Shown: positions 40,984-63,146, counted from the stretch's first letter. The stretch: 64,000 nt of DNA from Candidatus Zixiibacteriota bacterium (GCA_043819555.1 JBDREQ010000063.1:96001-160000), one strand, 5' to 3'. Translations and numbers: made by a program. Notes: generated by a model not told the origin, from the letters alone.

Positions 40984-41007
40984 ATAAATAGCGATACGAG
41001 CCTGAGA

Positions 41008-41745: not shown

Positions 41746-42294
41746 TCAAGCAGCGGCCATTTCCTGTTCGGCCAGATGTATTCCTTCGCGCATAGCATTC
41801 AAATTCATTTCCTGAGTACCGGCAGGGACATTTTCCGATATGACTTGTTCCAGTATTTTTGGTGAAATCAAATTTGAAAGCCGATTCAAATATCCCAGGA
41901 TTATCATGTTGGCGATGATTTTGCGATTGAATTTGGTGAATGCGATATCGGTTGCACTGATGGCATATCTTTTTATGTTTTCGGGTTCGTTAGCGTCGTT
42001 GGTAATCACCAAATCTTTTTCGACAATAAGCGTCCCGCCGGGTTTCAAAAATGGAATGAATTTATCATAAGCGGGCTGAGCCATGGCCACCAAAATATCA
42101 AATTTTGACGGTTCCAGTTCATAAATTTCCCGGTCGGATATAATCACATCGCCCCGGCATTCGCCGCCTCGCGATTCACTGCCGTACGATTGATTCTGGA
42201 TGGCTTTTTTGCCGTCCAATGATGCCGCCTGCCCGAGAATATAGCTTGACATGACAATCCCCTGCCCCCCGAATCCGGCTAATCTGATAATCAA
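41746..42294 (-). CDS. korC: 2-oxoacid:ferredoxin oxidoreductase gamma subunit
   Basis: GFGGQG, SYGSESRGG, NMIILG. Confidence 0.88.
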   Translation of the reverse strand: MIIRLAGFGGQGIVMSSYILGQAASLDGKKAIQNQSYGSESRGGECRGDVIISDREIYELEPSKFDILVAMAQPAYDKFIPFLKPGGTLIVEKDLVITNDANEPENIKRYAISATDIAFTKFNRKIIANMIILGYLNRLSNLISPKILEQVISENVPAGTQEMNLNAMREGIHLAEQEMAAA

Positions 42295-45574: not shown

Positions 45575-45586
45575 GAGGATAAATTT

Positions 45587-46741
45587 ATGTCCCGAGTGGG
45601 AATTATTGGAATAGGACATGGAGAATTCGGGCGCAGGAGCGATGCCACCGTTCAGGAGCTGGCTTTTGAGGCGTATCGCGACGCCGTGCATGACGCCGAG
45701 ATTGATCCCAAAGAAATTGACGGCTCGGTCATCGGTTCGGTTCCCGAATATCATAAACAGCGATCATTGCCCGGAGTCGTTCAGGAATATCTGGGATTAA
45801 ATCCCAAACCGACGTGGCTGACGGAAGTCGCCTGTTCATCGGGAAGCGCGGCGATCCGGACAGCCTGGATGGGGATCAAATCAGGGGCTCACCAATTAAT
45901 GGCCGTTATCGGATGCCAGAAAATGACTGAGCTTTCAACACCGGAAATTTTGGCCCTGATGGGCCGGGTCGGCGAAGTCCAATGGGAATCGGTTTTCGGC
46001 ACGACTTTTCCGGCTTATTACGCTTTGTTTGCTAAAAGCCACATGCATAAATTCGGCACGACAAGAGAACAGCTTTTACAGGTAGCGGTCAAGAATCATT
46101 TTTACGGAGCAAAGAATCCCAACGCCTTATTCAGGAAAGAAATCACGATTGAAAAAGCTCTGGCTTCCGATCCGGTATCGGATCCTTTTCAGGTTTATGA
46201 TTGTTGTGCCAATGCCGATGGAGCTGCTTGCGTGATTGTAGCGTCGGAAGAAATCGCGAAAAAATCAAAAAAACCGGTAGCATGGCTCGACGGTATGGGA
46301 TGCGCGACTTCGAGTATGTCGGTTTTGCGCCGTCCCGATCTGGTCGGACTTCCCAGCGCCGCGGAAGCATCGCGGATTGCCTATGAAATGGCCGGCGTGA
46401 ATGCCAAAAATATCAAAGTAGCCGAAGTGCATGACTGCTTTACGATTGCTGAAATTATGGCGTATGAAGACCTCGGTTTTTGCGCCAAAGGCGAAGGCGG
46501 TAAACTCATCGAGAACAAACAATCGTATATCGGCGGTTCGACTCCAGTAAATGTCGATGGCGGATTAAAATCCAAAGGTCATCCGATTGGAGCGACCGGA
46601 GTTTCGATGACAGTTGAAATCGTCAAACAGCTTCGCGGTGAAGCGGGTGAGAGGCAGGTTCCGGATGCCGATATTGGACTGACTCACAACGTCGGCGGCA
46701 TCGGGCAGTATTGCTTTGTTCAAGTTCTGAGGAGGGATTAG
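45587..46741 (+). CDS. SCP2/archaeal-type thiolase
   Basis: ACSSG, EVHDCF, GHPIGATG, HNVGG. Confidence 0.9.
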   Translation: MSRVGIIGIGHGEFGRRSDATVQELAFEAYRDAVHDAEIDPKEIDGSVIGSVPEYHKQRSLPGVVQEYLGLNPKPTWLTEVACSSGSAAIRTAWMGIKSGAHQLMAVIGCQKMTELSTPEILALMGRVGEVQWESVFGTTFPAYYALFAKSHMHKFGTTREQLLQVAVKNHFYGAKNPNALFRKEITIEKALASDPVSDPFQVYDCCANADGAACVIVASEEIAKKSKKPVAWLDGMGCATSSMSVLRRPDLVGLPSAAEASRIAYEMAGVNAKNIKVAEVHDCFTIAEIMAYEDLGFCAKGEGGKLIENKQSYIGGSTPVNVDGGLKSKGHPIGATGVSMTVEIVKQLRGEAGERQVPDADIGLTHNVGGIGQYCFVQVLRRD

Positions 46742-46745
46742 GCTT

Positions 46746-47198
46746 ATGTTTAAATGGTTCGGGAAAGTGAATTTTTCTCCCTATACTAAAGTCTCCGATT
46801 TTGCCAATCACCTTAAAGATGGCCGCCTTATGGGTTCCAAATGTAAAAAATGCGGAACCGAATCGTTTCCTCCCAAGGCCGATTGCAGCAATTGTCTATC
46901 GGGTGATTTTGAGTTTATCGAAATGTCAGGTCAGGCCAAGCTTGTTTCTTATACCGTTATTCACGCCGCTCCGACCGGTTTTGAGGATGTTGTTCCCTAC
47001 ACCATTGGGGTTGTGGATTTAAAAGAAACAGGCAGGCTTTTGGCATGGATTGGAGATACTGTCGCCGCCGATAAAATCGAAATCGGTATGGAGCTTCAGG
47101 TTGTACCGCAGATATTTGATGAACTCGAAGAAATTAAAGTCTATTATTCGCTGGAAAAGCCAGGGACCAAATGGTCTAAAGGCAATTCGATGACTTGA
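46746..47198 (+). CDS. DUF35 zinc-ribbon/OB-fold thiolase partner
   Basis: CKKCG..FPP..C..C followed by an OB fold; adjacent to the thiolase. Confidence 0.9.
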   Translation: MFKWFGKVNFSPYTKVSDFANHLKDGRLMGSKCKKCGTESFPPKADCSNCLSGDFEFIEMSGQAKLVSYTVIHAAPTGFEDVVPYTIGVVDLKETGRLLAWIGDTVAADKIEIGMELQVVPQIFDELEEIKVYYSLEKPGTKWSKGNSMT

Positions 47199-47224
47199 TT
47201 TTGATGTATAGATTTAAAAAGATA

Positions 47225-47251
47225 AAGGAATCCCAAAACGGGATTCCTTTT
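47225..47251. terminator. Bidirectional terminator between convergent operons
   Basis: AAAGGAATCCC-AAAAC-GGGATTCCTTT. Confidence 0.8.
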
Positions 47252-47280: not shown

Positions 47281-48057
47281 CTACTCGTTTTTCCATTCCG
47301 GTTTGCGGCGCTCGAGAAAAGAATTGATACCCTCGTTGGCGTCGTTCGTATCCATCAATTCGTCGATATAGAGTTCTTCAAGTTTATCCAGTCTCTTTTT
47401 CAAGGTTTTGTTGAATTGTCCTCGAGCTGCCCTGACTGCGAATTTCAGAGACGACGCGCTTTTGGGCAGGATATATTTCTCGACCCAGCCATCCACGCCG
47501 GACATCATCGCATCCCGGTCATCAAATACTTCTGTCGCCAAACCCATCTGAAGAGCGACATCGGGTTTGATAATACGTCCGGTCAAAAGCAAATCATCGG
47601 CGCGGGCTTGCCCGATTTTCATTGGAAGAATTACTGATGCCGGAGGCGCGAATACAGCAAGGCTGATTTCCGGCTGTCCCAATCGCGCTGTTTGGTCGAG
47701 AAACATGAAATTGCACATCAAAGCCAATTCCATCCCGCCGCCCAAACATTGACCCGAAACCAATGCAGCTGTCGGGATTGCCAAATCTGCCAGAGTATAA
47801 AACAGTGCGTGAAATTGTTTGAGCATTTCCGGCGCTTTTTCTTTGGTATGTTCGGGAACGCTGGCCCCGAAACAGAAATGCTCCCCCTCACCGGTAAATT
47901 GAATGAGTTTCACCTGGAGCTGATCTTTCAATTCCTTCAGCGTATTTTGAATATCATCCATCATAACCGCATCGAGAACATTCCCTTTGTGGGAATTAAG
48001 AATAATTCGCACGATTTGATTATCATGCGAATATTGAACGTCGATTTTTTTGGCCAT
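47281..48057 (-). CDS. dch: Cyclohexa-1,5-diene-1-carbonyl-CoA hydratase
   Basis: KGNVLD, HFCFGASVPEH, CLGGGMELA, GQPEI.L.VFAP.AS; next to oah and had. Confidence 0.88.
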   Translation of the reverse strand: MAKKIDVQYSHDNQIVRIILNSHKGNVLDAVMMDDIQNTLKELKDQLQVKLIQFTGEGEHFCFGASVPEHTKEKAPEMLKQFHALFYTLADLAIPTAALVSGQCLGGGMELALMCNFMFLDQTARLGQPEISLAVFAPPASVILPMKIGQARADDLLLTGRIIKPDVALQMGLATEVFDDRDAMMSGVDGWVEKYILPKSASSLKFAVRAARGQFNKTLKKRLDKLEELYIDELMDTNDANEGINSFLERRKPEWKNE

Positions 48058-48060: not shown

Positions 48061-49149
48061 CTATCCCTTCGGTAAAATGGCGTCGAGCATTTCATCATCC
48101 CATGGATGACCTTCGGCCAGCATCAAACGCAGCTTAATGAAATCAACTTCGCGATTGTGTTTTGGACCTTCGTTGAACGCCCGGAACCCTGCTTTGGCTT
48201 CGGTCATCATATTCAAGCCGAGCCAGTCGCGGTTTGACTGCTGATTGCGATCCCAATGCTCAAGTTTTTTCTTCCGCATACTGTTTACTGTTTTATTGAT
48301 ACAGTCAGGCATCATATAGAGCAGCTTTGTGCACAGAACATTCACGGCATCATCAAGGGGAGCAAGATCAATAGTACCGCCTGCCATCATCTCTTTGCCT
48401 TTTTTGTAATCGTCGCCTGATTTGCGTTTACCATAGACGATATCACCGGATTCATCGAGCCATTTATCAGTCACCAGAAGCGGATTGCGCACAAATTTAT
48501 TATCGACTTTCAAAACGGGAATGGCATCGGTGATAAGGCCGATGGTTTTGGCTTCATAAGCGGTCCACATTTCGCAAAGAGTGCAGCTCTGCATTGCCCT
48601 TTCAATACCTACAAACAGATGCAGAAAATCGGTGCTTCCGCCTTCGGGAGCGCTGCCGTGCTTGGGTCCGGCTTGTCCAAAGACAGACAGATCGCTGGCG
48701 ATGGCAAAATCGCAGGCCATCCCGATTTCCTGTCCTCCGGCGATGCGCATACCGTTAACGCGGCAGATGACAGGTTTATCACACATCAGAATACTGGTAA
48801 TCATGTCATTGAAAAGACGCATATACTGCTTGTATTCCAGCGGGCGGCCCGTATAATACTCGGCGTATTCCTTGGTATTGCCGCCGGTACAAAAAGCTTT
48901 GTCGCCCACGGCTGTAAAAACAACCGCCACGACCGAACGGTCATTGGATGCTTGCCGGAACGCAAGGATGACCTCTTTAACGGCGGCAGTTGTGTACGAA
49001 TTATACTGCTTGGGATTATTCAAAAATATCCAGGCGTTGAAAAGCCCAGAAACTTCTTTGCCCTCTTTATCCAGGCACGGGCGGCGTTCATAGATAATTT
49101 CCTTAAAATCGACTTCCACAAGATTATGGCTGTTTAGTTCTAAGCTCAT
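48061..49149 (-). CDS. oah: 6-oxocyclohex-1-ene-1-carbonyl-CoA hydrolase
   Basis: NP.QYNSYTT, AFCTGGNTKEYAEYY, GQAGPKHGSAP.GG.TDFL. Confidence 0.93.
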   Translation of the reverse strand: MSLELNSHNLVEVDFKEIIYERRPCLDKEGKEVSGLFNAWIFLNNPKQYNSYTTAAVKEVILAFRQASNDRSVVAVVFTAVGDKAFCTGGNTKEYAEYYTGRPLEYKQYMRLFNDMITSILMCDKPVICRVNGMRIAGGQEIGMACDFAIASDLSVFGQAGPKHGSAPEGGSTDFLHLFVGIERAMQSCTLCEMWTAYEAKTIGLITDAIPVLKVDNKFVRNPLLVTDKWLDESGDIVYGKRKSGDDYKKGKEMMAGGTIDLAPLDDAVNVLCTKLLYMMPDCINKTVNSMRKKKLEHWDRNQQSNRDWLGLNMMTEAKAGFRAFNEGPKHNREVDFIKLRLMLAEGHPWDDEMLDAILPKG

Positions 49150-49203: not shown

Positions 49204-50259
49204 TCAAAAATCGGGAGTCAAAACCGATCGTTTCAAAAGTTTATGCTCCAACGTTTTCTTGAATATATCATTAATTTGCGAAAGCGGGAAGGTGTCGGTA
49301 AACGGTTTCAGTTTCAGTTTACCATCGGCGACCAATTTAATGACGTCATTGTATAGTTCCGGCTTGCATCCCCACGTTCCGATAATCTGGGCATCAAACG
49401 CCATCAAATTACTCAATCGTACTTCCAGTTTATCAAGCGTAAAACCAACGACCGATAGAACTCCGGCAATACCCAGCAGACCAAAACCGAGTTCTTGACC
49501 CGGTTTGGTTCCCGATGTCTCGAATATTTTCCAGCCGTGGGGCGGTGCGCCCATTTCTTTGCAGGCCGCTTTGACAGCTCCTTTGATTGCCTTGAAGTCC
49601 ATGTCTTTGATATTCAAGGTTGACGTTATGCTTATGTCCCCCAACTGGTCGAGTTTTTTCTGGTCGATATCAAGCGCGAGGACGTTGGCTCCCACGATAT
49701 TGGCAAGTTGGGCGGCATATATGCCAATTCCGCCAACTCCGATTACGATAGCGAAATCACCGGCCTTAAGGCCGCTTTTGACAATAACCTGATATGGCGT
49801 CGAAACCGCATCGGCAATAACCGATAATTCAGCAAGAGAATGTTCCGCTAATGCCGCGTCGGGAACCTCTGCCAAAAATCGCGATGGCACTGTGATATGG
49901 CTGGCGAATCCGCCGTGAAAATCGTTTCCGGGCATCAACTGATTGCGGCAAATATTGCCTCGCCCGGCTTTACACAGGTCGCATTCTCCACAAGGGAGTA
50001 CGGCTGGGATGATGACCGGTTTTCCTTTTAGTTCAGCTGGACCGTCTATTACAATGCCGCTGATTTCGTGTCCCAGAACAAGGGGCAGTTGCTTTTTTGT
50101 TGGAACACCGTAATGCCAAAAGCTCAAATCAGTATGGCAGACTCCGCAGCCGGCGATTTCGACCATGGCATCATCGGCTTTCACTTCGGGCGGATCAAAT
50201 TCAACAAGCTCAAACGGCTGATCTTTGGCAACCATCTGATAGGCTCGAATTTTATCCAT
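49204..50259 (-). CDS. had: 6-hydroxycyclohex-1-ene-1-carbonyl-CoA dehydrogenase (Zn-ADH family)
   Basis: GVCHTD, GHEISG, MPGNDFHGGFA, ADAV.TPYQ, RLSNLMAFD. Confidence 0.92.
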   Translation of the reverse strand: MDKIRAYQMVAKDQPFELVEFDPPEVKADDAMVEIAGCGVCHTDLSFWHYGVPTKKQLPLVLGHEISGIVIDGPAELKGKPVIIPAVLPCGECDLCKAGRGNICRNQLMPGNDFHGGFASHITVPSRFLAEVPDAALAEHSLAELSVIADAVSTPYQVIVKSGLKAGDFAIVIGVGGIGIYAAQLANIVGANVLALDIDQKKLDQLGDISITSTLNIKDMDFKAIKGAVKAACKEMGAPPHGWKIFETSGTKPGQELGFGLLGIAGVLSVVGFTLDKLEVRLSNLMAFDAQIIGTWGCKPELYNDVIKLVADGKLKLKPFTDTFPLSQINDIFKKTLEHKLLKRSVLTPDF

Positions 50260-50311: not shown

Positions 50312-51259
50312 TCAATGTCCGATATCCGGCAATTCCATCAAATGCACCTGCGCCGTTATGGTTTTGTTAACCGGAGTTGAAATACCATGCTTGAGACCAT
50401 ACTCGACTATTTTTCCATTCAGATAATCAACTTCGGTTGGCGCTCCGGCATCGATATCGACCCACATTGACGGCCGGTGATGGCCGGCCTTTTTTAGATA
50501 TCCGATACAAAAATCAGCAAAGTCTTCTCTGAATTTGATGTTTTCTTTTGCGGCCACGGCCACCCCTTCATCTATTATACCCCGGACGATCTCAACCGAT
50601 AAATCAAAATCCATAACCTGCTTCATGGTTTTGCCGGTGATGGCGCACATCGCGCTGAGAGATGAGTTTAGAATAACTTTTTCCCAGACATAGAACAATA
50701 TGTCTTCAGGAATTTCAGTTTTTAAATTAGCGGAATTCAAAAGATTAGTAACAGTCTTGACCATCTCTTCAGATTTCGGCGACAATGCAGCGACATAGTT
50801 CGGCGGATTGAAAAAAGTAACATTGACGAGATCATTATTCTCGACGCCTCCGGCATAATTGACTACCATCCGCATTGCTTTCTCAGGGCCAAATACTCGA
50901 ACCGCTTCTGCTTCAGCATCAAGGCCATTCTGTGCGCACAGGACATACAATTTATCCGACGCGATTCGCGATAGCTGCGCCATTACTTTTTCGTTAGCAG
51001 TAGTCTTGACAGATACAACAGCCAGATCGAGATCATGCGTTTTTAGTTTATCAATAGAGGTACAAATATCAGAAACATCGGTTTTGAATTCAATTGTATT
51101 CGACAGTCTGATACCCGAATTCTCAATATTTTCCATTCGTTCAGGTATTATATCGCAGGCAACAACATATACTCCAGCTTTGGCAAAATGAGCCGCCAAT
51201 ACTGATCCGACAGGCCCCATACCAATCACGGCGACTCGTAGATTTTTATTTTCAGCCAT
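50312..51259 (-). CDS. Ketopantoate reductase-family (PanE/ApbA) 2-oxoacid reductase
   Basis: GMGPVG, VKT, QNG, WEK..LN, SM..D....PTEVDYLNG. Confidence 0.85.
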   Translation of the reverse strand: MAENKNLRVAVIGMGPVGSVLAAHFAKAGVYVVACDIIPERMENIENSGIRLSNTIEFKTDVSDICTSIDKLKTHDLDLAVVSVKTTANEKVMAQLSRIASDKLYVLCAQNGLDAEAEAVRVFGPEKAMRMVVNYAGGVENNDLVNVTFFNPPNYVAALSPKSEEMVKTVTNLLNSANLKTEIPEDILFYVWEKVILNSSLSAMCAITGKTMKQVMDFDLSVEIVRGIIDEGVAVAAKENIKFREDFADFCIGYLKKAGHHRPSMWVDIDAGAPTEVDYLNGKIVEYGLKHGISTPVNKTITAQVHLMELPDIGH

Positions 51260-51274
51260 ATATTTATCCCCCGA

Positions 51275-52687
51275 TTATGTTCCCAGTTTGATTTTTCTAT
51301 TATCAAATAAAGGTACCGCAAAAAACGTCAAAAGGCTTATTATCCAGCAAAAATAAATTGGATGCACCAGGCCAAAACTCTTGAAAAATGCCGGTATCTG
51401 CGGGACTAATAGCCATATTACCAGCGCCGCCATGGCCATCAGCAATGTCCAGGTCGCATGTGAGCGGCGGCAGATGCCGGGCCAGAATAAGGTCATCAAG
51501 GTTACCAGCGTATAAGCCGTCGTCAGGGTTAAACCGATAAGCAAAGTTTTCAATATTCCTGAAACGGATACGGCCAGTATATATGTGAATACGCTTAATA
51601 CCAAAATAGATAAGCGCGAGTAAACCCGTTCTTTTTGTTCAGACAAATTAGGCGAGAAAAAGCGTTTGATTATATCACCGACAACCAGCGTGGCGCTGCC
51701 CAACAACAAAGCCGACGCGGTCGATACATCGGCTGCCCACAGCCCGGCCAGGATTATTCCGGCGACAAATGGGCTTAAACTCAAGACCATGCGGGGCAAG
51801 GCTTCGGTAGGAATAATACCGGGATGCTGAATAGCCGCGGCGATGCCGATTATGGCGCTTACAAACCCAACCGGAAAAATTATAAAGGCTCCCAGAATGA
51901 ATCCATTACGCGCGGCTCTGGAATTTTTGGCGGCGAAACTTATCTGGACGATTGATTGCACGGAAAAAGTCGTCGTACACATAACGACGAACCAGGCAAT
52001 GATGAGTCCCCATCCCAACGCACCCAGATCAAAGCCGGGATGTTCGACCGGGAGTTTGGAAATTATCTCTCCGAACCCGCCAACTTTATCAACCGCCATG
52101 ACAGCGCCCAAAATAACTCCAGCGTAGATGAAAATCACGTTGATGATGTTAGTCAAACCTGCCGCCCAGAAACCTCCTATTAATGTAATACCGACGAACA
52201 CCACCGCCGTAACCAGCATGCCTGATTGAAAAGTGAAAACTTCCGGTAATAGAGATGACAGTATCGCTCCGCCTGCGACATATTGAAGTGATGTGATGAC
52301 TATCTGAAGTGTCAATTGACCAACAACGCCGATAACTCGCCCGGATGTATTATAATATTTTTCAAATAACTCAGGCAGGGTGGCTACTTCCAGCTTGCGA
52401 TATCTCTGTGCGGCGAACAGTCCGACTAATAAGGCACCGGCGGCCCAGGCGGCATTATACCAACCGGCTGAAATGCCGGAATTGTAAGCCCGCTCGGCGA
52501 CCCCGATAGTGGAAGCTCCACCAATCGCAAGTCCGGTCAGCAGCGGCGCAATTACCCAGGCCGGCAAGCGGCGTCCGGCCAAAAGATAACCTACCATTCC
52601 TCCCCGGCTGAGATGACGCGACATCCAAGTGATAACATAGAGTAGAATGATATAAATACATACGATTATGAGCGGAATCCAATTCAT
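51275..52687 (-). CDS. Sodium:solute symporter (SSS family)
   Basis: YLLAGR.L, IGG.ST.G, many TM helices, AA..STAS. Confidence 0.9.
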   Translation of the reverse strand: MNWIPLIIVCIYIILLYVITWMSRHLSRGGMVGYLLAGRRLPAWVIAPLLTGLAIGGASTIGVAERAYNSGISAGWYNAAWAAGALLVGLFAAQRYRKLEVATLPELFEKYYNTSGRVIGVVGQLTLQIVITSLQYVAGGAILSSLLPEVFTFQSGMLVTAVVFVGITLIGGFWAAGLTNIINVIFIYAGVILGAVMAVDKVGGFGEIISKLPVEHPGFDLGALGWGLIIAWFVVMCTTTFSVQSIVQISFAAKNSRAARNGFILGAFIIFPVGFVSAIIGIAAAIQHPGIIPTEALPRMVLSLSPFVAGIILAGLWAADVSTASALLLGSATLVVGDIIKRFFSPNLSEQKERVYSRLSILVLSVFTYILAVSVSGILKTLLIGLTLTTAYTLVTLMTLFWPGICRRSHATWTLLMAMAALVIWLLVPQIPAFFKSFGLVHPIYFCWIISLLTFFAVPLFDNRKIKLGT

Positions 52688-52751
52688 AGCCCAATCATCC
52701 CTGCATGATTAGCGATAAGCCATTACCTCCCCAAATAAAACTCTTACGCCT

Positions 52752-54830
52752 CTATATTTTCAAACGCGCATCAACTACCTCAACACCATAGCCAGCCTCA
52801 AACGCGAAGACCGGATTCAAATCCATTTCTTTGATTTCCGGGAAATCGGATGTAAGCTGGGAAATCCTAAGAAGCGTTTCGGCCAGCTTATCGATATCGA
52901 CCGCCTTTTCGCCTCTGAAGCCTTCTAATATCCGATAGCCCTTGATTGAAGAAATCATATTATTGGTATCCTGCTCAGAAAGCGGAGCGAGGCGGATCTG
53001 AACGTCTTTCAAAACCTCAACAAAAACGCCGCCGAGACCAAACATAATCGTCGCGCCCAAGCCTTCGTTTGCCTGAGCTCCGATGATAATTTCCTTGCCT
53101 TCCTTGCGGAATTCCTGCACGACAAATGAAGGCTTGAACTTGCCGAATTTCTTTGACATTTCATCGAATGCCGATATCAATGCCGCTTCGTCTTTGAGAT
53201 TGAGATATACTCCGCCCTCGTCAGATTTATGAACAATTTCCTCAGCATCAACTTTGAGTACCAATGGATAGTGCATCTTCGCGGCCTGTTTGACAAGCTC
53301 GTCCTTTGTTTGCACCTTAATAGTCTTGACTGTAGGAATCCCATAACTTTTCAACAATGCGAAAACATCGGCCTGCGGGAGGAATTTATCCTGCCCTCGA
53401 TATTTATCAATAATATCCTTAGCGGTTTTTTTATCGAAGTCGTAAGTTCTGTATTTGGGTTCTTCTCGCCGGATAATCCGGCCGTATTTTATCATTGCGT
53501 TCAGCGCTTTTGAAGCCGATTCCGGGAAATCATAGACCGGGATCCCGCTCTCGCGAATCAGCCTGACAACTTCGCCGAATTTCTCCTCGATTGTCAGGAT
53601 TATGCAGACGATTGGTTTGCTTGCCGTTTTACCAATCTCTGCCAGTTTATGCGCGACCGCTTCACAATCAACAAACGGTGGTGTGACAAAATTGAGAATT
53701 AGCGAATCGATATTAGGATCTTTCAAGAGCGCATCAACTGTCCCGCCATACTCTTTGGCCCCAGCTGTCGCGATAACATCGACCGGATTGGATACGATGG
53801 CTTCAGAAAATAAAAGCTCACCAAGCGTTTTGGATGTTTCCGGGCTGAGTTTAGCCAGTTTGAGGCCGGATTTTATGCATTCATCAACGGCAATGATGGC
53901 CGGGCCGCCGGTATTGGTGACGATTACGATATTTTCAGATTTTGGAATCGGCTGAGTGGACAGCGCGATGGCCGCTTCAATCATTTCCTGTTGATTATCA
54001 AAGCGCATCACGCCTGCTTTTTCAAAGATGGCATCAGCCAGAGTATCCTGCTCGATAAGCGAACCGGTATGAGATGCCACAGCGGCGACGCCTTCGGTGG
54101 TACGTCCGGTTTTGACAGTCAATATCGGAGTGTTTTTGGTTACACGGTTGGCAACTTCGAGAAATCCGGCCGGGTCTTTAATAGTCTCAATGTGAGTCAT
54201 GATGACTTTGGTGCCTTCATCCTGACCATAATAATCAATGATTTCATTCATGCTGACATCAGCCTCGTTGCCAAAGCTGGCATACATCCGCGTACCGATT
54301 CCGATATTATAAAGCTGTAGTTTCAGAGTTTCGCCAACCCCGCCGCTTTGCGCTACGATAGAGATATTTCCCGCTATTTGAGGCACAAAAGTGAAGTTAG
54401 CATACACGGAAACATCGGGATCGGAATTTTGTATGCCCTGCGAGTTAGGGCCATAGATTCGCATGCCATATTTATGAGCAACTTCGACTATCTTCTTTTC
54501 AAGCTCAAATCCTTCTTTACCGACTTCCTTGAATCCGGCTGTATGGACAATTGCGTATTTAATGCCCTTTCTGCCGCAATCTTCCAAAACGACCGGTACC
54601 AAAGTGTTTTTGATCGATATATTGACTAGATCGATTTCATCGGGTACATCCATAACCGATGCGTAGGTCTTAAAACTTTTAATATGTTTCGATTTGGGAT
54701 TGATAGGGTAGATAGGGCCCTTAAAGTTATGGTCAACCAGATTTTGTATAACGATATGGCCAATACTTAAAGGATTATTTGAAGCTCCAATAATTGCCAC
54801 TGACCTGGGCTTGAACAAACCGTCAAGCAT
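52752..54830 (-). CDS. ADP-forming acyl-CoA synthetase (fused alpha-beta ACD family)
   Basis: PRSVAIIGAS, GPNSQG, SHTGS phospho-His, NPVD, ATP-grasp HKSDEGGV, MDLNP. Confidence 0.9.
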   Translation of the reverse strand: MLDGLFKPRSVAIIGASNNPLSIGHIVIQNLVDHNFKGPIYPINPKSKHIKSFKTYASVMDVPDEIDLVNISIKNTLVPVVLEDCGRKGIKYAIVHTAGFKEVGKEGFELEKKIVEVAHKYGMRIYGPNSQGIQNSDPDVSVYANFTFVPQIAGNISIVAQSGGVGETLKLQLYNIGIGTRMYASFGNEADVSMNEIIDYYGQDEGTKVIMTHIETIKDPAGFLEVANRVTKNTPILTVKTGRTTEGVAAVASHTGSLIEQDTLADAIFEKAGVMRFDNQQEMIEAAIALSTQPIPKSENIVIVTNTGGPAIIAVDECIKSGLKLAKLSPETSKTLGELLFSEAIVSNPVDVIATAGAKEYGGTVDALLKDPNIDSLILNFVTPPFVDCEAVAHKLAEIGKTASKPIVCIILTIEEKFGEVVRLIRESGIPVYDFPESASKALNAMIKYGRIIRREEPKYRTYDFDKKTAKDIIDKYRGQDKFLPQADVFALLKSYGIPTVKTIKVQTKDELVKQAAKMHYPLVLKVDAEEIVHKSDEGGVYLNLKDEAALISAFDEMSKKFGKFKPSFVVQEFRKEGKEIIIGAQANEGLGATIMFGLGGVFVEVLKDVQIRLAPLSEQDTNNMISSIKGYRILEGFRGEKAVDIDKLAETLLRISQLTSDFPEIKEMDLNPVFAFEAGYGVEVVDARLKI

Positions 54831-55608
54831 CGAGACCTCCTTTGCCGTTTATAGAATAAAGAGCCGCTCCAAAAGCTCCTGTTAACTGAGGATGAGGGGG
54901 AACATGAACTTTTTGCCCGATTCTTTCCTCGAACATTTTTACCAGATAGGGATTATGGGCGATAACGCCCCCGCTCATCACGATATTCCCGTCCATAGTA
55001 TCCATTTCCAAAACTCTTTTTATAACTGAAATAAAAATGCCCTTAACGATATCCGCGACCGCAACTCCTTCTCGAATGCGCGCCAAAATTTCCGTTCCGG
55101 TAAAGACAGTGCAATAACTGCCAATGGGAACAGTATTTTCCGCTCTTTCAGCCAATTCGTTTAATTGTCCCAGAGGAATTCTCAGGCGGTTGGCGATTTC
55201 TTCCAAAAACGCGCCTGTGCCGGCGGCGCATTTGCGATTCATTTTGAAATTTGTACGTTTTCCGCTATCATCGATTTTTATAGTTTTGCTATCCTGTCCG
55301 CCGATGTCAATCAAAGTCTGGGTAAAGGGGAAATAATGATAACTACCCGCTGCATGACAACTGATTTCGGTCATGGTTCCCCTCGCGAATGGGATATTGT
55401 TGCGTCCATATCCGGTAGCGGTAACGATTACACCATCGGGATTTTTACATTGGCACATATCACAGGCGGCGCCAAAAGCCTGTTTGCCGGCTTTTTCAAA
55501 ATCGGCCCCCGAATCGACAACAGCATTTCCGATGATTTCACGGTTATCATCAATAATGACAGCCTTGGTTGTTGAGGCCCCGATATCAATTCCTGCGTAA
55601 TAATCCAT
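54823..55608 (-). CDS. HgdC/FldI-type ATP-dependent dehydratase activase
   Basis: GIDIGASTTK, TGYGR, DIGGQD.K, MN.KCAAGTG, CTVF. Confidence 0.92.
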   Translation of the reverse strand: MDYYAGIDIGASTTKAVIIDDNREIIGNAVVDSGADFEKAGKQAFGAACDMCQCKNPDGVIVTATGYGRNNIPFARGTMTEISCHAAGSYHYFPFTQTLIDIGGQDSKTIKIDDSGKRTNFKMNRKCAAGTGAFLEEIANRLRIPLGQLNELAERAENTVPIGSYCTVFTGTEILARIREGVAVADIVKGIFISVIKRVLEMDTMDGNIVMSGGVIAHNPYLVKMFEERIGQKVHVPPHPQLTGAFGAALYSINGKGGLDA

Positions 55609-55642
55609 AAAATATCGATTTATCTATAATGCATCGCGAAAT

Positions 55643-56887
55643 TTATCTTGAATCCAATTGTTCGATAAAGGCTTCAATATTGGTTTTCGCCTGTTCTTCC
55701 GAATAACATCGCAAATCGTTGAGATCGCCATTGATTGTCAGCGTCGGTATGCTCAGTTTCTTCGTCAACCGTTCGGGCATGCCGTAACGGCAGTTGGAAT
55801 TATTAGGGCAAGTTTTGGAATCATGAAATACGATTCCATCAAGTTTAAATCTATCCACAATATCTTCGATATATTTTTCCTTGAAATCCTCATCACGAAC
55901 GATAAATATCTCAGTGTAGGCGCGAGCCATGCTCAAGAATGGGTCTTTAGGATCAAAGGCATTGAATATCCAACTATTGCAATAGGTCGATGCGATAACG
56001 GCCGTATTAAAACTGATAAAAAATTCGGACAGGTCGCGGAGCTTGCCCCAGATCGGCATACCTTCCCAGTAAAGTCTAAATTTTTCATCTTCGACCGCGC
56101 CGGTATTATTTGCGACTCGTTCTTCCAGTTCTTTAAGAAGCAGCTCGTAATACTCGTTGGCAGTATTTGATCCCCGCAGTACAACCGCCGGACCCATGTG
56201 AATAGTGGCGTCGAAGAAACTCATCGGTGCGGGCGAGGCAGTATTAGTTTCCAAAACTTTTTTCCACAATTCACTGCATTTTTTGGAACGAGCCATGACT
56301 TCCCTAAATTTATCGATATCAAATCTATTGCCAGAAATTTTCTCGAGTGTCGGGATCAGTTCTTTTATCTGATGAACGATGCCGGATAAAACGCCGTCGG
56401 ATACGTCTCCGATATTCCGAAAAGTGGAAATTCCGATTATGGGAGCGTTAAACTCTCTCGCGTACCACGATAACCAATCCTGAACATCGCGGCATTGATT
56501 GGTGTTAAATACTAAAACATCCGGTTTGGGAACCCCTTCGATGCCTTTGTAAGCCATAGATAACGGCGTTTGTTTTTTCAAATAGGAACCGATATCGCTG
56601 GTCAGGTATGAGCAGATATCCGGAGAATAACCAATCGCGTTTGCGGCGGGGATTAAATTGGGCGCCATTCTCGTCGCCCCCAGCATGGCGCCATGATTTT
56701 CGGGATAATAGACTTTGAATCCCATGCTCAATAAAAGCTCGGCCGGGCCAACGCTGGTGCACCAGGCGACTTTTTGAGAATCATCCTGAGCGGCGGCATC
56801 CAGTTCATAAAAATAATCCGCCATTATTTTTTTCAACTGTCCGGTAGCGGCGATTTTTTTTATGCCAGTTTTTTTCTCTTCGCCCAT
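55643..56887 (-). CDS. 2-hydroxyacyl-CoA dehydratase alpha-type subunit (HgdA/FldB/HadB family)
   Basis: YYPENHGA, DICSY, NQC, H..KTC, TNIEAFIE. Confidence 0.85.
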   Translation of the reverse strand: MGEEKKTGIKKIAATGQLKKIMADYFYELDAAAQDDSQKVAWCTSVGPAELLLSMGFKVYYPENHGAMLGATRMAPNLIPAANAIGYSPDICSYLTSDIGSYLKKQTPLSMAYKGIEGVPKPDVLVFNTNQCRDVQDWLSWYAREFNAPIIGISTFRNIGDVSDGVLSGIVHQIKELIPTLEKISGNRFDIDKFREVMARSKKCSELWKKVLETNTASPAPMSFFDATIHMGPAVVLRGSNTANEYYELLLKELEERVANNTGAVEDEKFRLYWEGMPIWGKLRDLSEFFISFNTAVIASTYCNSWIFNAFDPKDPFLSMARAYTEIFIVRDEDFKEKYIEDIVDRFKLDGIVFHDSKTCPNNSNCRYGMPERLTKKLSIPTLTINGDLNDLRCYSEEQAKTNIEAFIEQLDSR

Positions 56888-57006: not shown

Positions 57007-57225
57007 TTAATTTTTCTTCCGCGTAAAAATCATTACGGTTTTGTCGTTTTTATCCTCAAAACATACGTTACAGCCGCCGCAATCAAGATCGCGAACCGCT
57101 ACGGTTTTGATTTCGAATCCCAGCATCTCATAATTCTCAAGCGCTTCTGCAAGCCTTGGACCCGATGCTGTAAATTGAGGATTCCAGCCGTCCGCTTTCA
57201 ATTTTTCAATAGATATGTTATCCAT
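57007..57225 (-). CDS. Small CxxCxxC hypothetical protein
   Basis: 72 aa; CGGCNVC; ATG overlaps the stop of the bzdV-like gene. Confidence 0.65.
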   Translation of the reverse strand: MDNISIEKLKADGWNPQFTASGPRLAEALENYEMLGFEIKTVAVRDLDCGGCNVCFEDKNDKTVMIFTRKKN

Positions 57226-59753
57226 CAGAAAAGATCATCCAAATCATCTTCCCCGCCGCCACCGCCCGGCATTTCTCCATGCTCCTGCAAATATTGCTGA
57301 ATAAGTTCGCTTTCGCGTTTGGTGTACATCGGATCTTCTTCCCAGATAAACCACCTGGCTTCACCGGGATTTCCCAGACATTCGCTCAGGCCGTTACGGA
57401 TATTACTCACGCCCGAAATGCGAATAACTTTTTTACTCTCATCCAGCAATCGAAAAACACCTTCAGCATTGGGCAGGGATTCAATCGATTCTTGATTTAA
57501 CGGAAGCCACGGTTCAGGTGGTAAAGTCACCGGAGATATTCTTTGCCTTTGATAGCATTGCAGACAACGCCGTGACTCACGGACGGCATGCTCTTCATCC
57601 ATCGTAACAGTTATTAGATTAAAATTGCTTTTTCTTTTTTCCGGATTGACCGAATCAACCACTGTTCGAGAATGCTGGAATGCATCATGCGGGATTTCTA
57701 TTCGGGAATACTCGTATTCCGAGTTGTTAAAATCAGGTTCTGGGATTCCCGAACCTCCGAGAAATTTGTCAATTCGGTCGACCGCAATTCGTCCTTCGGC
57801 AATGGCATCAATGACCGACGTCGGCCCCCGCATAACATCGCCGGCGACAAAAACATTTTCTGATACTTCAATATCAATGGCCTGCTCGATGTTTATTCCG
57901 AATTTATCTGAGAAATAACTGTTTAACTTTTCATCAACTTCCTGCCCAATAGCGACGATGGCTGCCTCGGCGGCAATTTCTTTGCTTTCGTTTTCATCAA
58001 ACTGAGGATTAAATCGGTTTTTTTCATCAAAGACTCGTGTACAACGAATGAATTCTATTCCGGCAAGTTTTTCTCCGTCGCTGATGAATTTTCTTGGGCC
58101 CCAGGAATTCTCAATTTTGATTCCTTCCTCTTCGGCCTGTGCTATTTCCCACTTATGAGCAGGCATTTCTTCTCTGGATTCAAGGCAAACCAAAGTTACT
58201 TCATTGGCACCCAACCTGCTGGCTGTCATGGCGGCATCAATAGCGACATTCCCTCCGCCGATGACTATTACTTGTCCGGTAAGTTTTGGTTCATGCGACA
58301 GTTTGGCTGACTTTAGAAAATCCAGTGCTGGATAAATACCGTTTAAATTCGAATTTTCGATATTTAATATTTTACTTGCCGATACACCCGCCGCAATTAG
58401 CATCGCATCGTATCCATCAGCTTTTAATTTGTCTATTCCCGCCGTATCGCCAAATTCATTATTAGGATGAATTTTAATTCCCAGTTTTTCGATAGTTTTC
58501 AATTCACGGTCAAGAATATCCTGCGGCAATCTATAATCAGGAATGCCATGGCGGAGCATCCCGCCCGGCTGGTTTTCCTTTTCAAATATCTCAACCGCAT
58601 GGCCCTGCATTGCAAGATAATAGGCCGATGTCAATCCTGCCGGTCCAGAACCGATAATCGCGATTTTTTTTCCAGTACTTTGTTTTTTATTTGATAACAG
58701 AAAATCAAGATGCCCGACTTTCTCGGCCGCAAAACGTTTCAGATCGCATATCGCTACCGGCTTATCGATCTCACTTCGGCGACAACCAGATTCACAGGGA
58801 TGAAAACATACATACCCAAGAATACCCGGAAAAGGAACCTTGGCGCAAATTACTTCAAGCGCCTTTTGATATTCGCCTCGTGCGATAAAATGCAAATAGC
58901 GGGGAATATCAATCCCGGCCGGGCATGAAGAAACGCAGGGGAGAGCCTTACCGGCCTGAACCGGAGTTACACCTTCTTTATCGCGCATGGCTCCCGTTGG
59001 GCAAATTTCGATACATGCTCCACAGTTGCGACAAATACTTTTTTCTGAATCTGTTTCGTCATTGAAACCAATCCAGGCGCCGCTATCTTTCCAGACAGCT
59101 CCGAGAATATCTGCTTGATGAATATCATCGCAAATTCTGACGCATCGCAGGCATCCAACACATAAATTATAATCGCGGATAAAGAACGGTACATTGGATG
59201 AAATTGGCCGGTTTTGTGGAATATACTTTGGCGTTTCACCGGGAATGCCGATGTAATCGCTGATTTTTTCAAGTTCGCAATGTCCCAATAGGGGGCAGCA
59301 TCTTTCATTCACAGGAACATTTGATGAGCAATCGGTACGGCTGCATCCTTCTTTTTGGGCGCAGGTCAGACAGGCATGGGGGTGATCTGATAAAATCTTA
59401 CTTAAGGAATCTCGGCGTTTTTTGATTAATTTTTCAGATGTAGTGGAAATGTTCATCCCATCGATGACTTCAGTCACACAGGAATTCACCGGTTCCGGTT
59501 GGCCATCAACTTCAACAATACATAAATTACAATGGCCGTTTTCTCCCGCTGATTCGTCTGTTTTCTCCGAGTTGATTTCAATATTTGTCTGATATATCGA
59601 GTCGGCCCACGTGACTTTATCTGAGGGAGAAATATCGGGATGGTGACACAAACGCGGGATATAGATCCCTGCGCCGTCGGCAACTTCGAGGATTGTTTTT
59701 CCCTCTGCAGACGAGACACTCACACCATCGATATTTATTTTGATATCAGGCAT
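57225..59753 (-). CDS. bzdV: BzdV-like NAD(P)H-dependent Fe-S flavoprotein oxidoreductase
   Basis: N-terminal 2Fe-2S/4Fe-4S module, two ferredoxin motifs, GltD-like CPAGID and GSGPAG/GGGNVA, extra ~100 aa C-terminal domain; follows bzdM. Confidence 0.72.
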   Translation of the reverse strand: MPDIKINIDGVSVSSAEGKTILEVADGAGIYIPRLCHHPDISPSDKVTWADSIYQTNIEINSEKTDESAGENGHCNLCIVEVDGQPEPVNSCVTEVIDGMNISTTSEKLIKKRRDSLSKILSDHPHACLTCAQKEGCSRTDCSSNVPVNERCCPLLGHCELEKISDYIGIPGETPKYIPQNRPISSNVPFFIRDYNLCVGCLRCVRICDDIHQADILGAVWKDSGAWIGFNDETDSEKSICRNCGACIEICPTGAMRDKEGVTPVQAGKALPCVSSCPAGIDIPRYLHFIARGEYQKALEVICAKVPFPGILGYVCFHPCESGCRRSEIDKPVAICDLKRFAAEKVGHLDFLLSNKKQSTGKKIAIIGSGPAGLTSAYYLAMQGHAVEIFEKENQPGGMLRHGIPDYRLPQDILDRELKTIEKLGIKIHPNNEFGDTAGIDKLKADGYDAMLIAAGVSASKILNIENSNLNGIYPALDFLKSAKLSHEPKLTGQVIVIGGGNVAIDAAMTASRLGANEVTLVCLESREEMPAHKWEIAQAEEEGIKIENSWGPRKFISDGEKLAGIEFIRCTRVFDEKNRFNPQFDENESKEIAAEAAIVAIGQEVDEKLNSYFSDKFGINIEQAIDIEVSENVFVAGDVMRGPTSVIDAIAEGRIAVDRIDKFLGGSGIPEPDFNNSEYEYSRIEIPHDAFQHSRTVVDSVNPEKRKSNFNLITVTMDEEHAVRESRRCLQCYQRQRISPVTLPPEPWLPLNQESIESLPNAEGVFRLLDESKKVIRISGVSNIRNGLSECLGNPGEARWFIWEEDPMYTKRESELIQQYLQEHGEMPGGGGGEDDLDDLF

Positions 59754-59829: not shown

Positions 59830-60111
59830 TTACCACGAATGCGAAACCGCTTCGAGGGTACAAGCCTCAACGCATGGCAGAGGCGGTCGTTCTCCGGTCG
59901 GTTTGCACGGGCCGCAATCGTATTTCACTTTTTTGCGAAACTCTTCCTTGATCGCCGCGACTTCATCATCATAATCGTCCACAATCATTTCAAACATACC
60001 GATCGGACAGGCCGAAATGCAGGCATGATGTTCACATTCGATGCACTTATCGGTATCGATAGTAATGAAAAAATCACCGCTTCCATCCATATATCCATAG
60101 TTAGCTTTCAT
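59830..60111 (-). CDS. bzdM: Benzoyl-CoA reductase-associated ferredoxin
   Basis: ANYGY.DGSG.FFITID, CIEC..C..ACP, CGPC..PCVEAC; directly after bzdQ. Confidence 0.82.
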   Translation of the reverse strand: MKANYGYMDGSGDFFITIDTDKCIECEHHACISACPIGMFEMIVDDYDDEVAAIKEEFRKKVKYDCGPCKPTGERPPLPCVEACTLEAVSHSW

Positions 60112-60998
60112 GCTGACGCTTTCTTCCTTTGTTTTTCCATTAATGCTTTGGCGAACAAAGCGGCACCAAAAGCTCCGGCAATCTGAGTGTCGTATTTCGA
60201 TTTGAGAGCGGTTACGTTTAGTTCTTTCTCGAGGCGTTTGACGACGCCGGCGTTTTTGGCAATTCCTCCGGTTATGGCAAAATCCGTCTCAACGCCGACC
60301 CGTTCCAATAACGAAACAACGCGATGAGCCATAGCCGAGCAGTAAGCTGCCAAAACTCTCTTTTTTGACCAGCCTTCACGCAAAAGTGAAGACGCTTCCG
60401 ATTTGGCAAAAACGACACAGGTCGAAGAAACCGGCGGCGGTTCTTCTTCAACATCAAGAGACATCTCACCGACTTCCTCAATCGGAATCGCCAGAAGATC
60501 AGCGAAAACCTCCATGCCTCGTCCGGTTCCAGCGGCGCACTTATCATTCATGAGGAAGTTTTTGACTTTGCCTTTTTCATCGCACAGGATCGCTTTACAA
60601 TCCTGTCCGCCCATATCGAGAATAGTCCGAACGGTATTGCCGTACATCAAATTGCCGCCACGGGCATGGCATGCGATTTCAGTAATAGCCCGATCTGCAA
60701 ACGGTACATTGACGCGCCCATATCCGGTTCCAACGGTGTAATGCACATCAGCAATTGTCAATCCGGTATTTTCCAGCGCCCAGTTCATGGCATTTTTGGC
60801 GCTGTTGGGGCTGTCTGAACCGGTGCGCATATTGGAGTACGCGTAAAGCTCCCCATCCAGAAGTATGACCGCCTGCGAGCTTACCGAACCGACATCGACT
60901 CCTGCCGAGATAATATCAGCGCTTTTGGGATCTTTGTTTTCATCGTGCCAGTTATATTCTTTCCAGCGCCAGAATTCTTTTTTATTCTCCGTCATCAT
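60108..60998 (-). CDS. bzdQ: Benzoyl-CoA reductase (bzd-type) ATPase subunit Q
   Basis: EFWRW.E, GVDVGSVSSQ, TEIACHARG, MNDKCAAGTGRG, CVVF. Confidence 0.92.
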   Translation of the reverse strand: MMTENKKEFWRWKEYNWHDENKDPKSADIISAGVDVGSVSSQAVILLDGELYAYSNMRTGSDSPNSAKNAMNWALENTGLTIADVHYTVGTGYGRVNVPFADRAITEIACHARGGNLMYGNTVRTILDMGGQDCKAILCDEKGKVKNFLMNDKCAAGTGRGMEVFADLLAIPIEEVGEMSLDVEEEPPPVSSTCVVFAKSEASSLLREGWSKKRVLAAYCSAMAHRVVSLLERVGVETDFAITGGIAKNAGVVKRLEKELNVTALKSKYDTQIAGAFGAALFAKALMEKQRKKASA

Positions 60999-61768: not shown

Positions 61769-61806
61769 TTATCCTCCTCTATATAAAATCTATTTTTCAA
61801 ATTAAA

Positions 61807-63123: not shown

Positions 63124-63146
63124 TTATTCTCCCTTTCTTGTAATCA

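Follow-up and report, generated by a model that had tools for sequence, protein, structure and literature searches.

A putative one-gene 2-hydroxyacyl-CoA dehydratase module tied to the benzoyl-CoA pathway in Zixibacteria: a candidate entry route for aryl-lactates

Described dehydratases and the locus under study

To our knowledge, all of the 2-hydroxyacyl-CoA dehydratases studied so far need two different Fe-S subunits. The present account deals with a stretch of 64,000 nucleotides (JBDREQ010000063.1:96001-160000, contig C63 of GCA_043819555.1), hereafter called the window, in which a gene of this family, designated HGDD, occurs without a recognizable partner subunit between the genes of the anaerobic benzoyl-CoA pathway. 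The genome from which the window is taken is 3.35 Mb in size and 97% complete, and its nearest protein relatives are the named Zixibacteria. Together with the genes of an ATP-dependent activase, an ADP-forming acyl-CoA synthetase, a sodium symporter and a PanE-like reductase, HGDD forms a five-gene module which, according to sequence comparisons, probably feeds phenylalanine-type acids into the benzoyl-CoA pathway. The best reading of the module, in which we place slightly better than even confidence, is that aryl-pyruvates or aryl-lactates would be converted via an aryl-lactyl-CoA and a cinnamoyl-type CoA ester to benzoyl-CoA.

Reactions of this kind have been described or proposed elsewhere. 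In the phenylalanine metabolism of Clostridium sporogenes, FldABC together with FldI transforms (R)-phenyllactyl-CoA into cinnamoyl-CoA (Dickert et al. 2002, cited in PMC13416013). In a 2026 paper devoted to a benzene degrader, the dehydration of phenyllactyl-CoA is proposed as a step on the way to benzoyl-CoA, and a 'singular gene' sharing 30% identity with FldB is mentioned (PMC13416013). In Desulfococcus multivorans, the counterparts Dmul_24730-24900 have already been annotated in the way proposed here for the module; phenylacetate and phenylpyruvate specifically elicit the formation of proteins encoded nearby, the organism grows on phenyllactate, and the missing beta subunit is not discussed in the part of the paper that was available (Doerries et al. 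2016, PMC5109826). Among the papers listed, a literature search found none, by title or abstract, on a one-subunit 2-hydroxyacyl-CoA dehydratase of the HGDD kind, nor any enzyme test of it, and nothing linking a 2-hydroxyacyl-CoA dehydratase with Aminicenantes.

HGDD, its missing partner and its genomic associations

HGDD (55643..56887, minus strand) is a protein of 414 aa belonging to the HGD-D family (PF06050, 214.6 bits for a cut-off of 28.4), of the catalytic (alpha/BzdO) type. With respect to the curated models, it scores best with HadB (NF052455, 226.4 bits), followed by BcrB (TIGR02260, 155.4 vs a cut-off of 486.55), BzdO (TIGR03191, 84.3 vs 448.6) and the double-cubane proteins (59 bits); among solved structures, HadB (3o3m_A, 175 bits over residues 22-414) precedes MbdO (130) and BzdO (87). 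By these scores, the closest models and structures of HGDD are those of dehydratase alpha subunits. Six residues, C92, C132, C360, E63, H65 and W42, are invariant in 74 HGDD homologues. The three cysteines align with Cys95, Cys128 and Cys380 of BzdO and with the cluster ligands of HadB, i.e., the three Cys residues of the [4Fe-4S] cluster are kept, while E63 aligns with Glu65 and W42 with Trp46 of BzdO. The position of BzdO His131 is occupied by Val135 in HGDD and also by Val in the HadB alignment. On these grounds HGDD would be expected to catalyze a dehydration. The double-cubane reading of HGDD was rejected, the score with NF040772 being 59 for a cut-off of 350 and the set of Cys residues incomplete. 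The protein atlas offered nothing past the family name for HGDD, and the search of sequencing runs listed no RNA run containing the sequence and a single DNA run, for which the fraction of sampled words was 0.05.

A PF06050 search of the whole genome yields three genes, namely bzdN, bzdO and HGDD, and no gene for a beta subunit of HGDD; the BcrAD-type ATPase genes are similarly three in number, bzdP, bzdQ and the activase gene of the module. A homologue scan of species-representative genomes gave 594 pattern matches, 521 of which were confirmed as relatives, for an estimated total of about 1300 stored stretches. The locus counts reported below refer to the best 80 of these 521 relatives, which share 62-83% identity with HGDD and come from 79 genomes, all metagenome-assembled and labelled by their submitters as Zixibacteria, Aminicenantes, Desulfobacterota, Acidobacteria, Bacteroidota, Thermoplasmata-type archaea and others; many of the loci are short contigs, with more than 3 kb available upstream in 57 and downstream in 57. 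Using a profile built from HGDD, BzdO, BzdN and Bcr-type subunits, exactly one HGD-D open reading frame (ORF) was counted in 79 of the 80 loci, and the last one contains a split copy of the same gene. In three of the five carrier genomes that were checked whole (G001, G002 and G005), HGDD is the sole PF06050 gene. Since a second HGD-D gene is encountered neither in the genome of the window, nor in the loci, nor in these three genomes, the HGDD family seems to work without a second subunit, and a homomeric (alpha2) enzyme would be expected. The preliminary description of the window had designated HGDD as a dehydratase alpha subunit; the catalytic type is retained, whereas the partner implied by this name has been found neither in the genome nor in the 80 loci. 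A pairing of HGDD with BzdN or BzdO was also considered as a general solution and rejected, G001, G002 and G005 being devoid of those genes.

The association of HGDD with the benzoyl-CoA pathway was followed through Oah, the ring-cleaving 6-oxocyclohex-1-ene-1-carbonyl-CoA hydrolase (48061..49149, minus strand; TIGR03200 570.1 bits, cut-off 464.45). The preliminary description had suggested a survey of co-occurrence with bzdNOPQ; the survey with Oah covered 121 Zixibacteria genomes, each at least 90% complete, in which HGDD-like genes were retained at E<=1e-100 and related genomes are not independent. HGDD-like genes occur in 11/121 genomes and Oah in 12/121 (9/80 and 10/80, respectively, when counted by genus); all 11 carriers possess Oah, and none of the 109 genomes without Oah contains HGDD. 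The only Oah genome without HGDD, G094, is uninformative because its bzdN lies at a contig start and bzdO is absent too. Depending on the lineage, the carriers differ in the associated reductase. In a first lineage of seven genomes, the copy is 81-100% identical and stands beside bzd-type reductase genes. In a second lineage of four genomes, the HGDD-like copy is 49-53% identical and accompanies a reductase of the Bcr type, the genes being arranged as bcrCBAD, AMP-forming ligase, HGDD-like, PanE-like, activase, had, oah, dch. Two loci of this second lineage, L093 (G018:C1:184000-203000) and L094 (G110:C69:50000-68000), contain an HGDD-like gene 48-49% identical and a PanE-like gene 52-55% identical to those of the window and molybdenum (Mo)-hydroxylase subunits nearby, the activase being present in L093 only.

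Among 121 genomes of unknown completeness belonging to the class of G001, HGDD-like genes were found in 16 and Oah in 12; Oah occurs in all 11 genomes with a copy of at least 62% identity, and G301 has Oah only. Of the 79 carrier genomes, distributed over many phyla, 65 gave an Oah match at E<=1e-60 and 56 gave one exceeding the curated cut-off. HGDD accompanies a class I reductase in the window and a class II (Bam) reductase in G005, which possesses bamBCDEF, and in G002, whose BamB is 78.6% identical to that of G005; in G005, the bam genes are located 116 kb from HGDD and oah on another contig. As judged from these gene distributions and from that of the PanE-like gene described below, the module is conserved and functionally linked both with the benzoyl-CoA pathway and with a reductase of 2-oxoacids.

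The five genes of the module were placed by the preliminary description between bzdV and had-oah-dch, co-oriented and closely spaced, and the same coordinates were recovered, all on the minus strand; a 72-aa ORF had been missed. The complete row on this strand comprises bzdN (cut by the window end), bzdO, bzdP, bzdQ, a ferredoxin gene, the bzdV-like gene, the 72-aa ORF, a gap of 120 nt, the five genes of the module, had, oah and dch. The class I benzoyl-CoA reductase genes bzdQ, bzdP, bzdO and bzdN occupy 60108..64000 (TIGR03192 455.2, TIGR03191 739 and TIGR03190 344.7 bits, the last on the partial gene; an uncut bzdN codes for 374 aa in L095). They are followed by the ferredoxin gene (59830..60111; 93 aa, weak 4Fe-4S dicluster matches), the gene of the 842-aa BzdV-like Fe-S flavoprotein (57225..59753; Fer2_4, Fer4_20, Pyr_redox_2) and the 72-aa ORF (57007..57225), whose start overlaps the bzdV-like stop and in which a CGGC..C motif is seen; neither Pfam nor NCBIfam gave a match for it, and copies with 64-71% identity come after bzdV in L001, L002 and L017. 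Downstream of the module, had (49204..50259; TIGR03201 439.8 bits, cut-off 338.65) and oah are followed by dch (47281..48057), coding for a dienoyl-CoA hydratase-like crotonase with TIGR03189 as its best match (223.6 bits, below the cut-off of 292.5).

From the HGDD gene through dch, successive genes are separated by 3-64 nt, except for those of the activase and the synthetase, which overlap by 8 nt. A 12-pair terminator-like hairpin occurs at 47250-47224, just 3' of dch; it is bidirectional (47224..47250), each strand showing a stem of 12 or 11 pairs with a T run after it, and would close the operon. No convincing terminator was found in the 120-nt gap upstream of HGDD. According to the spacing and to the position of the terminator, the five-gene module is transcriptionally fused here to had-oah-dch. 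In addition, the eight-gene order HGDD-activase-synthetase-symporter-PanE-had-oah-dch recurs in four other loci (L001, L002, L006 and L017) and is thus not due to chance.

Partner enzymes, proposed route and rival explanations

The PanE/ApbA-family reductase (50312..51259, minus strand, 315 aa; ApbA and ApbA_C domains) is proposed to act as a 2-oxoacid (aryl-pyruvate) reductase. It passes the broad subfamily model TIGR00745 (178.8 bits, cut-off 141.35) and no equivalog model, and its solved relatives all score 74-79 bits. A supply of pantothenate by this reductase and the symporter, offered as a simpler alternative in the preliminary description, would agree with its being the only clear ApbA-family gene of a genome in which panC is present, but a PanE-family gene is found in only 13 of the 121 Zixibacteria genomes and is missing from the other 108; 11 of these 13 genomes are HGDD carriers, with the gene located inside the cluster each time. 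The two other PanE-family proteins score higher and are only 23-27% identical to the reductase of the window; the corresponding tree is poorly resolved (4/13 inner branches starred), and only its pairwise identities were used. The distribution of the gene therefore follows the HGDD cluster instead of panC, contrary to what would be expected of a housekeeping gene for pantothenate synthesis. In addition, the symporter reaches 77.8 bits for a panF (TIGR02119) cut-off of 328.05, and PanE-like genes adjoin HGDD in other phyla as well; they were counted in 10 of the 80 loci and in both Zixibacteria lineages. A 728-aa protein from a 50%-identity representative library, P0242, even combines a PanE-like part (38% identical) with an HGDD domain (52%) in which the cluster Cys are all kept. 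The pantothenate explanation is accordingly hardly credible and, by its distribution, the reductase belongs to the HGDD module, as the preliminary description had supposed in tying this homologue to the dehydratase. The PanE-type reductase may be replaced in 9-11 loci of the Desulfomonile type (L038, L057, L080 and related ones) by a P5CR-like reductase (F420_oxidored and P5CR_dimer), whose gene precedes HGDD by about 200 nt. Two other proteins, P0249 and P0265, consist of PanE-like sequences fused to HGD-D domains devoid of the three cluster Cys, and look like a separate heteromeric variant.

The HgdC/HadI-type ATP-dependent activase (54823..55608, minus strand, 261 aa; PF01869 175.3 bits; TIGR00241 219.1 bits, cut-off 125.4) accompanies HGDD in 63 of the 80 loci. 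The synthetase (52752..54830, minus strand, 692 aa) is a fused alpha-beta ADP-forming acyl-CoA synthetase in which five Pfam domains, of the CoA-binding, flavodoxin-like ligase and ATP-grasp types (CoA_binding_2, Succ_CoA_lig, Ligase_CoA_2, ATP-grasp_5), are assembled in one chain. Its best solved relative is the 4-hydroxybutyrate--CoA ligase [ADP-forming] 8wzu, with 487 bits over the full length, and it stays under the substrate-specific models (NF045493, 573 vs 1300). The thaumarchaeal enzyme 8wzu presumably works in the ligase direction. The synthetase follows HGDD and the activase in 24/80 loci; in other lineages, including the second Zixibacteria lineage and the Desulfobacterota, its place is taken by AMP-forming ligases (17 of the 80 loci contain one), a replacement which points to activation of an acid to its CoA ester as the direction of the reaction. 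The transporter (51275..52687, minus strand, 470 aa; PF00474 108.4 bits), present in 14/80 loci, belongs to the sodium:solute symporter family (SSF). A role in pantothenate supply had been raised for it in the simpler alternative of the preliminary description; by its model scores (see above for panF; PutP, 89.4 vs 515.5), it is a generic SSF member and not PanF.

The symporter and the synthetase might alternatively import and activate benzoate, the synthetase having been considered as the benzoate ligase in the simpler alternative of the preliminary description, with HGDD, the activase and the PanE-like reductase acting otherwise or on a second substrate. In the 97%-complete genome, no protein exceeds the cut-off of 375 bits of the benzoate-CoA ligase model TIGR02262 (best 212 bits; an acetate-CoA ligase and a fatty-acid ligase of generic type score highest), an observation which suits this explanation, as does the fact that synthetase and symporter travel with oah in the Zixibacteria and Aminicenantes-type loci. 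However, the synthetase gene is translationally coupled to that of the activase by the 8-nt overlap, it stays by HGDD where the benzoyl-CoA genes are distant (G005) and in the archaeal loci, and the AMP-forming ligases that replace it are unlike benzoate-CoA ligases; moreover, three of the five genes are left unexplained. D. multivorans possesses a separate BclA in addition to two ligases in its phenyllactate cluster (PMC5109826). An import and activation of benzoate by these two proteins is thus regarded as unlikely. As an observation in its own right, the lack of a benzoate-CoA ligase is odd for a benzoyl-CoA degrader.

A further possibility is that the module runs backwards as a part of the lower pathway, from glutaconyl-CoA via 2-hydroxyglutaryl-CoA and 2-hydroxyglutarate, with a gain of ATP by the synthetase, to 2-oxoglutarate, which would feed a 2-oxoacid:ferredoxin oxidoreductase reducing the ferredoxin of the reductase. 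Genes for such an oxidoreductase, korA, korB and korG (41746..44302, minus strand; POR_N, TPP_enzyme_C, POR), belong to the same island and stand directly upstream of HGDD in L005 and L006; ADP-forming synthetases can conserve ATP, and the coupling to benzoyl-CoA would be explained. On the other hand, the replacement by AMP-forming ligases fits activation and not a gain of ATP, the module contains a dedicated importer, and the PaaK-like, IorA and ACT neighbours described below are left unexplained, so that a backward operation is considered very improbable.

With regard to the shortening of the side chain, the preliminary description had entrusted beta-oxidation to the SDR, thiolase and DUF35 genes (44825..47198, plus strand, identified by domain matches), an assignment that now seems less likely. 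In the Aminicenantes-type loci L009, L015 and L019, oah, SDR, thiolase and DUF35 are contiguous, and a 249-aa BzdZ SDR, which the trio resembles, lies beside oah in D. multivorans (PMC5109826). Both arrangements suggest that the trio belongs to the lower benzoyl-CoA pathway, where it would more likely act from 3-hydroxypimeloyl-CoA onward. The predicted shortening more likely involves two other proteins of the window, o694 (35919..38003, minus strand), a divergent 3-hydroxyacyl-CoA dehydrogenase/enoyl-CoA hydratase fusion of 694 aa (crotonase matches over residues 415-607 and a weak N-terminal 3HCDH_N), and thl2 (38006..39214, minus strand), a divergent thiolase (TIGR01930 159.4 bits, below the cut-off) and candidate benzoylacetyl-CoA thiolase. 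In L001, L002 and L017, a thiolase 78-80% identical to thl2 and a protein of about 700 aa, 68-70% identical to o694, are encoded directly upstream of HGDD, and a thl2-type thiolase occurs in 20 of the 80 loci. A 680-aa fusion and a 396-aa thiolase are encoded as a pair twice in D. multivorans, in the cinnamate/phenylpropanoate and in the phenylacetate/phenylpyruvate clusters (PMC5109826). In architecture and size, o694 matches Dmul_24740 and Dmul_24680, and thl2 may be compared to Dmul_24750, of 396 aa.

The aromatic nature of the substrate is suggested by the genomic context. Besides the benzoyl-CoA genes, aromatic-type neighbours of HGDD (PaaK-like, ACT, IorA and 4-hydroxybenzoyl-CoA-reductase-like) are distributed across L076, L079 and L094, e.g., IorA and a PaaK-like ligase in L076, and PaaK-like ligases, ACT proteins and a 4-hydroxybenzoyl-CoA-reductase-like subunit in L079. 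The genome of the window itself codes for an enzyme resembling 4-hydroxybenzoyl-CoA reductase (see below) and for no benzoate-CoA ligase above the cut-off. A connection with enzymes of 2-oxo and 2-hydroxy acids is indicated, besides the PanE-like genes and the P0242 fusion, by a GlcD-type FAD dehydrogenase encoded directly upstream of HGDD in 18 loci and by L044, which contains a LarA-type hydroxyacid racemase and a CoA-transferase. A tblastn search of the genome of the window detected no relative of IorA, PaaK or BamB. The lack of IOR and PaaK matches fits a route avoiding phenylacetate, in agreement with the bypass of the phenylacetate/phenylglyoxylate route that had been put forward at the outset.

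In the proposed route, an aromatic 2-oxo or 2-hydroxy acid, such as phenylpyruvate, phenyllactate and possibly their 4-hydroxy forms, would enter the cell via the Na+ symporter or arise inside it from phenylalanine or tyrosine. The PanE-type reductase would give the (R)-2-hydroxy compound and the ADP-forming synthetase the CoA thioester, reduction and activation being conceivable in either order. HGDD, primed by one low-potential electron delivered by the ATP-dependent activase, would then remove water via a ketyl radical on its [4Fe-4S] cluster to give an enoyl-CoA of the cinnamoyl-CoA type, whose side chain o694 and thl2 would shorten to benzoyl-CoA and acetyl-CoA, the former being presumably processed by BzdNOPQ, Dch, Had and Oah. 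In a wider form, which is possible but held with less than even confidence, the one-gene alpha2 radical dehydratase would represent a widespread aryl-lactate gateway to benzoyl-CoA, and the Zixibacteria and Aminicenantes-type sediment bacteria would keep the benzoyl-CoA pathway mainly to burn the phenylalanine and tyrosine of proteins. Because no benzoate-CoA ligase was found, benzoyl-CoA would never be reached via free benzoate in this wider form, and the PanE-type reductase may act on the 2-oxoacyl-CoA and pass its product to the dehydratase, a direct hand-over suggested by the PanE-HGDD fusion.

A number of observations weigh against the aryl-lactate route. The score of HGDD is far under the HadB equivalog cut-off (226.4 vs 750), and it has to be assumed that an enzyme consisting of alpha subunits only would be active. 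Three cysteines have no counterpart in HadB, C303 being invariant and C43 and C394 near-invariant in the 74 homologues; C303 aligns with Cys263 of BzdN, and C43 falls in the loop of BzdN Cys36, both positions being near ligands of the distal sub-cluster. A second cubane site of which these three residues are left over is conceivable, as is a location of the residues along the substrate pocket. The best structural match of the activase is MbdQ, the ATPase subunit of a benzoyl-CoA reductase (204 bits), ahead of HadI (178) and HgdC (170). The window contains no aminotransferase or other phenylalanine-specific gene, and the P0242 fusion was seen once, in one protein on one contig. A GlcD-FeS-CCG fusion is encoded directly upstream of HGDD in 19 of the 80 loci, and the GlcD-type FAD dehydrogenase of Desulfobacterota normally oxidizes hydroxyacids, which misfits a reductive first step; similarly, the D. 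multivorans genes are read in the accessible text as converting phenyllactate to phenylpyruvate, and detection of the dehydratase is not stated there (PMC5109826). The orthology of HGDD and Dmul_24850 is drawn from size, annotation and gene order only, and no named D. multivorans protein is among the 120 matches listed for a Desulfonema-type homologue query. Finally, Oah gave no match in 14/79 carrier genomes, whose completeness is unknown, and occurs in 0/5 genomes of the class of G001 with a copy of 61% identity or less.

Some of these observations would be accounted for if HGDD and the activase formed not a dehydratase but an ATP-driven ketyl-radical reductase, a minimal relative of benzoyl-CoA reductase whose substrate would be a substituted aryl-CoA or an alicyclic CoA ester. 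The strict coupling of HGDD to the benzoyl-CoA pathway whatever the class of reductase, the MbdQ-like activase, the residues Glu63 and Trp42 shared with BzdO and the positions of C43 and C303 agree with such an enzyme, as does G001, in which oah adjoins HGDD and neither a second HGD-D gene nor a BamB-like protein occurs, although the completeness of this genome is unknown. However, the module has no electron-storing subunit of the BzdN type and only one ATPase gene, His131 of BzdO is replaced by Val, Cys293 of BzdN has no HGDD counterpart in the alignment, which leaves the six-Cys pattern incomplete, and the scores are far below the reductase cut-offs. The recurrent partners of HGDD are, moreover, enzymes of 2-oxo and 2-hydroxy acids, a CoA ligase and a thiolase. 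A reductase of this kind is therefore judged quite unlikely.

An action on a non-aromatic 2-hydroxyacid, branched-chain or short aliphatic, by a module residing in an aromatic operon for regulatory or historical reasons, would be in line with the nearest solved relative, which acts on 2-hydroxyisocaproyl-CoA, with the generic neighbours found in many Desulfobacterota loci (GlcD-type dehydrogenase, fatty-acid-type ligase, thiolase), and with the occurrence of the more distant copies in the class of G001 without oah. The co-occurrence with oah is nevertheless near-perfect in two phyla and reaches 65/79 carriers overall, and the predicted transcriptional fusion to had-oah-dch also argues against this explanation, which is held to be improbable.

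If the aryl-lactate route is correct, it could explain how strict anaerobes reach benzoyl-CoA from phenylalanine without the phenylacetate and phenylglyoxylate enzymes, and HGDD, with about 1300 estimated stretches and oah in most carriers, might in sediments be the principal connection by which aromatic amino acids from proteins reach the anaerobic benzoyl-CoA pathway. A one-subunit dehydratase family would also change the structural picture of ketyl radical formation and recycling, and would be simpler to engineer.

Some further features of the genome and the window were noted. The genes yqeB, xdhC and a mobA-like gene (39393..41625, minus strand; TIGR03309 306.8 bits, cut-off 220; XdhC, NTP_transf_3) are devoted to the maturation of a molybdenum-hydroxylase cofactor. 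Elsewhere in the genome (C73:280100-287100, L098), a 931-aa fusion of a small Fe-S and a large Mo subunit scores 972 bits with the model of the 4-hydroxybenzoyl-CoA reductase alpha subunit, for a cut-off of 994.55, and adjoins an FAD subunit, a 574-aa protein and a second SSF symporter. At positions 6621-7394 of the window (plus strand), a 257-aa protein associates a response-regulator receiver with a glycine-cleavage H-protein domain, an unusual pairing, and adjoins PAS histidine kinases.

Comparison with known systems

Among the characterized dehydratases, HadBC and its activase HadI from Clostridioides difficile (3o3m, 4eht) resemble the module by the same fold family, the three aligned cluster Cys, the ATP-dependent activase encoded by one gene, and the Val at the position of BzdO His131. 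HadBC is, however, a heterodimer of two HGD-D subunits whereas HGDD occurs without a beta gene, and the module relies on an ADP-forming synthetase for activation, Pfam scans of the ORFs of the window having revealed no CoA-transferase. FldABC, compared by description only, performs the same chemistry as that proposed for HGDD; it differs in being a heterotrimer with a CoA-transferase subunit and in serving a reductive fermentation to phenylpropionate, whereas the product of the module would be oxidized to benzoyl-CoA.

The class I reductases BzdNOPQ and MbdNOPQ (8s02, 9g87; PMC11971306) belong to the same superfamily and, in the case of the window, to the same operon; HGDD shares with BzdO the cluster Cys, the Glu and the Trp, and the activase is nearest to MbdQ. 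These reductases are composed of two HGD-D subunits and two BcrAD-type ATPases, whereas the module has one of each and no [8Fe-9S] subunit of the BzdN type. Of the acid/base pair of BzdO, Glu65 and His131 (PMC11971306), the Glu is kept in HGDD (E63) and the His is not (Val135). The double-cubane proteins (DCCP; 6eno, 7yyl) resemble the module in consisting of one catalytic and one activase gene, the DCCP enzyme being homodimeric, but HGDD is only weakly similar to them (22.9 bits in the PDB) and its Trp42 sits where BzdO lost the second cubane (PMC11971306).

The cluster Dmul_24730-24900 differs from the module in that the ADP-forming synthetase gives way to AMP-forming ligases and the symporter to a TRAP transporter, and in occurring with iorAB and a class II reductase, whereas the genome of the window has a class I reductase and no iorAB match. 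It is similarly set between reductase genes (bam) and dch/oah, with CoA ligases, a transporter, the 680-aa fusion and the 396-aa thiolase nearby, and the sizes and architecture of its products match those of HGDD, the activase, the PanE-like reductase, o694 and thl2.

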